A stretch of DNA of 64,000 nt from Escherichia coli (GTDB taxonomy: Bacteria > Pseudomonadota > Gammaproteobacteria > Enterobacterales > Enterobacteriaceae): the NCBI RefSeq assembly GCF_003790525.1, contig NZ_CP033634.1; one strand, given 5' to 3'. This document shows positions 22,930 to 23,153 of the stretch, piece after piece. The position numbers and the translations under genes are program-made. Numbering within the stretch: position 1 is the stretch's first letter; each line of letters begins with the position of its first letter. The notes beneath the pieces are model-generated. The model did no database searches. It was not told the DNA's origin and worked only from the letters and a program-made list of their open reading frames with translations.

Positions 22930-23153
22930 TGCCGTGCCTCCATCGTAGCCGGGCTTCTGCGGGCGGGTTGCAAGGTAAGGTGAACCGCTGCGGTCACCCG
23001 GTCCCTCCTTCCCGTCTGCCGTGATTTTCCGGTCGTTCACCCGCTCAGATTTCGCGGTCTCACCCTCCAACTCCCGCCAGCCGTGTGCGTCAGGCTGCGG
23101 CTTCCCTTGCGCCCTTGCAACCCTGCAGGCCCGGCAAAGATGGAGGCACGGCA
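22930..23153. promoter_or_regulatory. Long imperfect hairpin (15-bp perfect arms 194 bp apart plus nested inverted repeats), candidate single-strand promoter/initiation structure upstream of the ArdB/KlcA-like gene
   Basis: TGCCGTGCCTCCATC at 22930-22944 versus GATGGAGGCACGGCA at 23139-23153; nested GGGTTGCAAGG / CCTTGCAACCC. Confidence 0.5.

Follow-up and report, generated by a model that had tools for sequence, protein, structure and literature searches.

A probable class 2 (ssp2-type) single-stranded DNA promoter upstream of klcA in the leading region of an IncF-type plasmid from Escherichia coli

Introduction

The best-known single-stranded DNA promoters of conjugative plasmids are the class 1 elements Frpo/ssiD and ssi1-3 of ColIb-P9 (Masai and Arai 1997; Bates 1999; Couturier 2023, PMC9849209). 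In these elements a hairpin of the transferred strand, located in the leading region, rebuilds a -35 and a mismatched -10 box, is active only while the DNA is single-stranded, and drives the early genes. The hairpin that is the subject of this report appears to follow the same principle.

A second group was described by Wen et al. (NAR 2025, PMC12672017). In their work the hairpins preceding klcA and ardA of pESBL are reported to be like each other, to be unrelated in sequence to Frpo/ssi, and to be conserved in F, and they were named class 2. The paper also reports zygotic induction, and transcription start sites of the pESBL class 2 hairpins that were mapped by 5'RACE in fresh transconjugants. 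The F copy is ssp2, which drives yfgB (bioRxiv 10.64898/2026.01.09.698686). According to that preprint, complementary-strand synthesis stalls at ssp2, the nascent 3' end lying at the stem base, UvrD relieves the stall, and deletion of ssp2 cuts transfer into restriction-proficient strains 5-fold to >20-fold; it also reports that transcripts of class 1 elements are able to act as primers for DNA synthesis, a process that ssp2 blocks. A deletion that abolishes function is likewise on record for these homologues (PMC12672017; bioRxiv 10.64898/2026.01.09.698686). A further set of candidates was listed by Samuel et al. (Nature 2024, PMC11541004); these are predicted only, concern an insect-gut metagenome element, and were not split from Frpo proper.

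Here we describe a hairpin upstream of an ardB/klcA gene in a stretch of 64,000 nucleotides from E. coli (contig NZ_CP033634.1 of assembly GCF_003790525.1), called the window below; all positions are those of the window unless stated otherwise. With a probability that we put at nearly nine in ten, the hairpin is a copy of the class 2 (ssp2-type) single-stranded DNA promoter of IncF/IncI leading regions.

Results

Plasmid context and the transferred strand

The window represents the leading region of an IncF-type plasmid, in which the order klcA-ssb-parB-psiB-psiA-ssiE-geneX-traM is that of F, accession NC_002483. More fully, an orphan methylase gene (20840-21523) is followed by small ORFs, klcA/ardB, a DUF1380-like ORF, ssb and a parB-like gene, and these by psiB, psiA, hok/sok, ssiE, gene X, traM, traJ and traA onward. 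The leading genes all lie on the plus strand and point toward positions 35898-35914, where the minus strand carries a nic-like sequence, GTAGTGTGTGGTGCTTT, which we take to be an R100-type nic site that fixes oriT. This location identifies the minus strand as the one that is transferred and that serves as template for klcA and the other leading genes, and the leading region enters the recipient first. The features immediately around the hairpin are the following.

22788-22811, plus strand: intrinsic terminator of the upstream operon, GGCGGGG-TAAAT-CCCCGCC followed by TTTTT, which separates that operon from the klcA unit (terminator scan)
23184-23188, plus strand: Shine-Dalgarno sequence GGAGG of klcA (read from the sequence)
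23197-23622, plus strand: ardB/klcA anti-restriction gene, 141 aa, the first gene after the putative promoter (PF03230 Antirestrict, E 1.7e-26)

The ArdB/KlcA-like gene that a preliminary description of this DNA had placed downstream of the hairpin is therefore present, as judged by the PF03230 match, and the hairpin ends 36 nt before it. The encoded protein is 94% identical to F YfgB. Its family assignment came from Pfam; among KlcA and its neighbours, only the methylase matched an NCBIfam family.

Several other elements of the region were seen in passing. A homologue of ssiE, 98% identical to F ssiE, is located at 35122-35310. Two Rfam matches exceed their gathering scores: the sok antitoxin RNA of a hok/sok or flm locus, at 32598-32774 on the plus strand (88.9 bits), and the antisense RNA AS-pc01, originally reported from pHK01, at 25222-25324 on the minus strand (86.7 bits), just upstream of a 459-aa ORF.

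Structure and folding of the hairpin

The preliminary description had reported perfect 15-bp arms enclosing a nested inverted pair, and both elements were found as described. The arms, 22930-22944 and 23139-23153, are fully complementary with 194 nt between them, and the nested pair, GGGTTGCAAGG and CCTTGCAACCC, occupies 22965-22975 and 23113-23123 with 11 of 11 positions paired. An inverted-repeat search extended the perfect run by 1 bp, to 16 bp (22929-22944 and 23139-23154), and placed it within an imperfect repeat of 32 nt, 22923-22954 and 23129-23160, that is 91% complementary; the whole imperfect hairpin thus covers 238 nt. We divide it, with its flank, as follows.

22923-23160, minus strand: complete class 2 (ssp2-type) hairpin, assigned from the inverted repeat, the DNA fold, identity to homologues and an nhmmer match (E 2e-52)
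23113-23160, minus strand: 5' arm of the transferred strand, putative template of the folded promoter, running without a break into the klcA template (sequence and pair list)
22976-23112, minus strand: hairpin interior, imperfectly paired and nearly invariant in close relatives (alignments)
22923-22975, minus strand: 3' arm of the transferred strand, CCTTGCAA...GCCCGGCTACGATGGAGGCACGGCACAGCCCG, putative non-template strand of the folded promoter (sequence; predicted geometry)
22948-22954, minus strand: GCCCGGC clamp adjoining the -10 box on its upstream side and forming 7 G+C base pairs with 23129-23135 (pair list)
22837-22922, no strand assigned: conserved flank, part of the module 22837-23178 that is common to klcA and ardA copies (alignment)

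The far arm is assigned as the non-template strand because the template arm must be contiguous with klcA. Within the flank there is a small hairpin, GGCCATGC-GGG-GCATGGCC, at 22868-22886, and the terminator scan gave a weak terminator-like match at 22872-22890, just upstream of the main hairpin. This flank of 85 nt is where complementary-strand synthesis would reach the stem.

Folding of the minus strand, which had been proposed as a check, yielded a stable stem-loop. As single-stranded DNA, a region of 297 nt containing the hairpin folded at -78.4 kcal/mol on the minus strand (z = -4.6) and at -76.3 kcal/mol on the plus strand (z = -6.6), and on either strand none of 200 shuffled sequences matched the natural one. 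When the minus strand was folded in sliding frames of 300 nt across 14-37 kb (background mean -45.8, sd 14.7), the hairpin locus reached -85.6 kcal/mol in its best frame, so that both this value and that of the 297-nt region lie beyond the earlier authors' screening value of below -75 kcal/mol in 300 nt. Only three Frpo copies, considered below, folded more strongly. The same scan gave -79.5 kcal/mol at 29691-29990, within the segment 29471-30050 of the parB-like gene (29329-31287); no other site below -75 kcal/mol falls in coding sequence. We consider the structure of the klcA hairpin confirmed as real and well above chance.

Similarity to class 2 promoters

Measured over 245 nt, the hairpin is 85.6% identical to F ssp2, 84.7% to the pESBL klcA copy and 83.9% to the pESBL ardA copy; its identity to an ardA copy from an IncK plasmid is 97.1%. 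Alignment showed that the resemblance extends to a module of ~340 bp (22837-23178 here) that stands before F yfgB, pESBL klcA, pESBL ardA and IncK ardA. Held in common with F ssp2 and the pESBL class 2 elements are the whole hairpin and its flanks, the position before an ArdB/KlcA gene, the strand, the base clamp GCCGTGCC/GGCACGGC, the GCCCGGC clamp and a near-identical interior, and the base stem matches that of F at 22 of 23 positions. The nhmmer match listed above was obtained with a family profile; a profile built without close relatives still found the hairpin at E 4e-20. Of the candidates listed in PMC11541004 (Supplementary Table 2), Frpo'4 is 79% identical to the present element over 343 nt (E 1e-76), and two others, Frpo*1 and Frpo*3, belong to this hairpin family as short members of Erwinia type. 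The element is widespread and everywhere unannotated: at least 5000 plasmids have the 416-bp intergenic region, as do 3700 of 5426 complete E. coli genomes. In short, the element itself is already known, and the window adds no new biology to the published picture of it.

Predicted promoter anatomy of the klcA allele

The predicted promoter elements are listed here.

22968-22973, minus strand: putative -35 box TTGCAA, fully paired with 23115-23120 (pair list; family stem pairing)
22942-22947, minus strand: putative -10 box TACGAT on the non-template arm, opposite ATCTTT on the template arm (pair list)
23148, plus strand: predicted transcription start (+/-2 nt), 7 nt downstream of the -10 box (promoter geometry only)

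Read 5' to 3' from 22975 to 22923, the far arm is CC-TTGCAA-CCCGCCCGCAGAAGCCCGGC-TACGAT-GGAGGC-A..., and each of the 2 boxes agrees with the consensus at 4 of 6 positions. The -10 box is mismatched: T at -12 and C at -10 lie opposite T residues and are unpaired. From -8 onward it is bordered by a G+C-rich clamp of 21 bp. The spacer, which measures 20 nt on the non-template arm and 15 nt on the template arm, consists of 3 + 4 + 7 bp broken by 4/1 and 2/0 internal loops. If these assignments are correct, a start near 23148 would give a leader of 49 nt. The folded strand thus presents the Frpo-like arrangement of a rebuilt, paired -35 box and a -10 box with unpaired positions. In the duplex, the sense strand reads TTGCAA-15 nt-AAAGAT, and a consensus scan found no sigma-70 duplex promoter across 22600-23300, which fits an element that is active only while single-stranded.

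The allele differs from those of F and pESBL at several points. Its -35 box is TTGCAA rather than TTGCAT, and its -10 box is TACGAT rather than TAAGAT, with mismatches at -12 and -10 rather than from -11 to -9. In addition, the extra unpaired bases of the spacer are on the non-template arm in this allele (20 nt, compared with 15 in F and pESBL), whereas the F and pESBL alleles carry them on the template arm (15 nt non-template, 19 nt template). This bulge on the opposite arm is a feature of the allele that goes beyond the literature, and promoter strength could differ from that of the F and pESBL alleles. Each spacer arm resembles the reverse complement of the opposite arm's spacer in F; as a speculation, the rearranged spacer might have originated by template switching within the quasi-palindrome.

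Such a rearrangement raises the question of whether the allele, although class 2 by descent, is weakened or inactive, klcA being expressed by read-through or from some other signal. The bulge and the 20-nt non-template spacer could be read in this way, as could the plainly broken state of the neighbouring class 3 promoter of the same plasmid (see below). Against it, the 2 boxes are separated by 14 spacer base pairs, exactly as in the F allele, and the allele is found at >=99% identity in >1000 plasmids and also before IncK ardA, which would not be expected of a dead element. Because so many plasmids carry it at this level of identity, we consider a weakened allele unlikely, and favor a working class 2 promoter.

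Relation to class 1 elements

The preliminary description had suggested an Frpo-type promoter or a single-strand initiation site on the transferred strand, and had proposed a comparison with F Frpo and ssi sequences. The strand, the homology to ssp2 and class 2, and the promoter anatomy all support the functional part of the first suggestion; kinship in sequence to Frpo/ssiD or ssiE was not found. When compared with 5 canonical Frpo/ssi sequences the hairpin showed no similarity (best blastn match 21 nt, E 0.09), and the comparison with known single-stranded DNA elements as a whole was negative for F ssiD/Frpo, ColIb ssi1-3 and ssiE and positive for the class 2 promoters, at 84-86%. The window itself contains 3 class 1 Frpo/ssiD copies, at 24742-25075, 28070-28419 and 33404-33753, whereas F is described as having 2. 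They are 80-87% identical to F ssiD, are located upstream of the 459-aa ORF, ssb and a ygeA-like region, respectively, and are the strongest minus-strand folds of the region (-95 to -99 kcal/mol); in the homology comparison made within the window, only a 17-nt match was found (E 2.2). We had also entertained common ancestry with class 1 Frpo by way of a AACGGGTGA-like motif, and dropped it, the motif being in a different part of the structure.

These comparisons bear on the second suggestion, in which the hairpin would be mainly an ssi signal that recruits primase, PriA or RNA polymerase for primer synthesis, with expression secondary. There is precedent in Frpo, which was first isolated as ssiD and whose transcript is reported to prime DNA synthesis in vitro (Masai and Arai 1997), and the strongly conserved interior motifs described below are left unexplained by promoter function. 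However, the hairpin lacks similarity to F ssiD, ColIb ssi1-3 and ssiE. Moreover, the early, rifampicin-sensitive conversion of F takes place downstream of ssp1/Frpo, and ssp2 delays conversion in a rifampicin-insensitive manner (bioRxiv 10.64898/2026.01.09.698686); what was found for the F copy is thus a roadblock to complementary-strand synthesis and not its initiation. A primary role in priming is unlikely, and we assign this reading a very low probability relative to that of a class 2 promoter.

A family of related hairpins

We scanned one genome per species (GTDB) with a 17-base pattern, GCCCGGCTANNNTNNNGNCACGGC, and obtained 91 loci. About half of these (~40) had arisen by chance in G+C-rich genomes, among them Streptomyces, and in MAGs; they were without a partner arm and were discarded. 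The pattern fixes GCCCGGCTA...T...G.CACGGC, and thereby the clamp together with three bases of the -10 box (T, A and T), and the set was then filtered for a paired base clamp. Because pattern and filter chose these positions, their conservation is circular; the GCCCGGC clamp, for example, is invariant in the family, but the search pattern itself contains it. Independent evidence comes only from whether the -10 box is paired, from the columns left free, and from the gene context.

There remained ~50 distinct hairpins of the same kind, of lengths ~225 nt and ~165 nt, all from Enterobacterales: Escherichia, Klebsiella, Salmonella, Yersinia pestis, Enterobacter, Lelliottia, Cedecea, Pantoea, Erwinia, Buttiauxella, Rahnella, Mixta and others. 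Wherever the flanking sequence was long enough to judge, the hairpin stands 20-35 nt before a gene encoded on the other strand, in one orientation, and the gene behind it encodes KlcA/ArdB, ArdA or an M.EcoGIX-like orphan methylase. Two incidental points concern the collection. One hairpin, in locus L051, is nearly palindromic and matched on both strands; the orientation that fits the gene was kept. Also, 2 contigs assigned to Streptomyces morookaense DSM 40503 (contigs 124 and 139; loci L008 and L009) carry an enterobacterial plasmid leading region with klcA, a methylase gene and class 2-like hairpins that are almost the same as those on plasmids of Enterobacter and E. coli, most likely as a result of assembly contamination.

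A joint alignment of 53 sequences was made with MAFFT, a consensus of 30 pairs was derived from it with RNAalifold, and profiles were searched with nhmmer. Among the 53 sequences, 96.5% of stem cells are able to pair, compared with 87.5% in shuffled alignments and 36-45% when partners were slid. Compensatory double changes were present in 12 of the 30 pairs, a level reached by 0 of 500 shuffles, with the qualification that the sequences are related and the shuffle control therefore overstates significance. Examples are the pairs at -8 (G-C in 37 sequences, A-T in 16) and +6 (G-C in 30, A-T in 23) and the stem beside the -35 box; the -35 stem itself is paired in ~90% of the 53 members, again with compensatory changes. 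Within the -10 box the individual folds gave a different result, in that only 13% of the hairpins are paired at -11, 43% at -10 and 19% at -9, whereas -12, -8 and -7 are paired in 89-100% (-8 and -7 in 100%). A bubble in the -10 box, the feature reported to be essential for Frpo, is therefore conserved. Finally, the non-Watson-Crick cells on the transferred strand comprise 61 G-T and 16 A-C, and this excess of G-T is a modest sign in favor of the transferred strand as the one that folds.

The latter observations also help to judge whether the structure acts at the level of RNA, as a terminator, attenuator or processing/stability element within a read-through transcript from upstream. The predicted folds of the two strands are about equal in energy, the plus strand included, and a weak terminator-like hairpin is located just upstream, at 22872-22890. 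However, the canonical terminator at 22788-22811 already ends the upstream operon, G-T cells are four times as frequent as A-C cells when the minus strand is considered, and boxes and bubble stand in a fixed orientation to the downstream gene in every copy. Rfam contained no match at 22800-23200 with E up to 1; at permissive thresholds, only sok and AS-pc01 were found across 20-36.5 kb. The possibility that the hairpin is itself an intrinsic terminator was likewise rejected, since the scan placed terminators only at 22788 and 22872 and there is no T-run after 23160. We consider an RNA-level role highly improbable.

Least credible of all, and to be discounted almost entirely, is a relic of a mobile element (MITE-like, with inverted repeats at its ends), or else a site of cruciform formation or recombination in the duplex that plays no part in expression: the 32-nt arms, the 174-nt interior and the repetition of the module before klcA and ardA on IncI/IncK plasmids might suggest one, but the flanks, ...GCGTCGTGTG and GTGTCGCGGA..., show no target-site duplication, the spacing and orientation of every copy relative to the anti-restriction or methylase gene that follows it are constant, stem changes are compensatory and the mismatch bubble is conserved rather than erased, and a transposon relic in particular was excluded on the grounds of no target duplication and a constant gene context. 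The data are best accommodated by a class 2 promoter that acts from the folded transferred strand.

Kinship with class 3 promoters

The authors of PMC12672017 described class 3 as different from all other hairpins. Yet a profile from which class 3 sequences had been left out found the promoter of the pESBL M.EcoGIX operon (locus L004, positions 3278-3438) at E 1e-14 and its F counterpart, ssp3 (locus L003, positions 2662-2822), at E 4e-14, both across almost the whole model. The class 3 elements share the order of motifs GCCGTGCC, GGGC, AAGCCGCAG, GACCGGGTGA, CTTGCAT-15-TAACGT and GGCACGGC; they differ in a shorter interior, ~160 nt in total, and class 3/F ssp3 is reported to be without roadblock activity. 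Judged by these sequence comparisons, class 2 and class 3 promoters are homologous, a point that goes beyond the literature.

Two of the shared motifs belong to the interior. On the transferred strand AAGCCGCAG is located at 23095-23103 and GACCGGGTGA at 22994-23003, ~20 nt beyond the -35 stem. Both are invariant in 53 of 53 sequences while the arms vary, and parts of the two pair with each other in the consensus structure, in pairs that never vary. This conservation exceeds what base pairing or recognition by RNA polymerase would need, and the motifs may therefore form a module for a host factor. We offer as a tentative and somewhat doubtful proposal that class 2 and class 3 promoters belong to one superfamily, together with dozens of shorter hairpins that precede klcA, ardA or orphan methylase genes in Enterobacterales (Pantoea, Erwinia, Yersinia, Klebsiella and others), and that in this superfamily AAGCCGCAG and GACCGGGTGA serve as a structural module or as a binding module for a host factor, for example SSB, UvrD or PriA.

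The window also contains what is left of a class 3 (ssp3-type) promoter. At 18686-18761 on the minus strand there is only the non-template half, CTTGCAT-15-TAACGT...GGCACGGC, which matched the 3' half of the model only (nhmmer, E 2.5e-9). Relative to pESBL, deletion has removed the rest of the hairpin together with nearly the whole DUF1281 gene, and with half of the structure gone the hairpin cannot form. An IS110-family element (ISShdy1-like transposase, 338 aa) at 19127-20143 is inserted between a truncated ORF of 80 aa (18787-19029), which is homologous to the pESBL gene that follows DUF1281, and the orphan methylase gene. The broken class 3 promoter and the IS110 insertion probably leave the methylase without early expression.

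Discussion

We propose the following sequence of events for the class 2 hairpin of this plasmid. During conjugation the minus strand would enter the recipient 5' to 3' from the nic site at ~35.9 kb and, while it is single-stranded, the segment from 23160 to 22923 would fold back into a long imperfect hairpin whose stem mimics duplex promoter DNA. The gene-distal arm would act as the non-template strand, supplying the TTGCAA -35 box and the TACGAT -10 box, with 14 bp and internal loops between them, and the -10 mismatches would leave that box partly pre-melted; the gene-proximal arm would be the template, running straight into klcA. Host sigma-70 RNA polymerase would then start near 23148 and transcribe klcA/ardB and the genes behind it, and klcA expression would precede any action of restriction enzymes on duplex DNA. 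With synthesis of the complementary strand the hairpin would be lost, and expression would cease, the duplex arrangement TTGCAA-15 nt-AAAGAT being a poor promoter. In F, the G+C-rich stem in addition stalls the complementary strand at its base until UvrD unwinds it, and downstream Frpo promoters thereby remain single-stranded longer. For the present allele, transcription from single-stranded DNA, its start sites, the roadblock and an anti-restriction benefit are to be expected by analogy with the published work on homologues.

The case shows that an element of this kind can be recognised by a reader without tools. Also, a common natural allele with a rearranged spacer, on a plasmid in which the class 3 sister promoter has been destroyed, could aid comparisons of structure with function. 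If the proposal for the interior motifs is true, the AAGCCGCAG/GACCGGGTGA module could set the strength of the promoter or of the roadblock, and the bulge on the opposite arm could tune the module. More generally, hairpins of this kind let plasmids switch on their anti-restriction and SOS-inhibition genes within minutes of entry, while the incoming DNA is a single strand, and in F the ssp2 element additionally delays conversion to duplex DNA.
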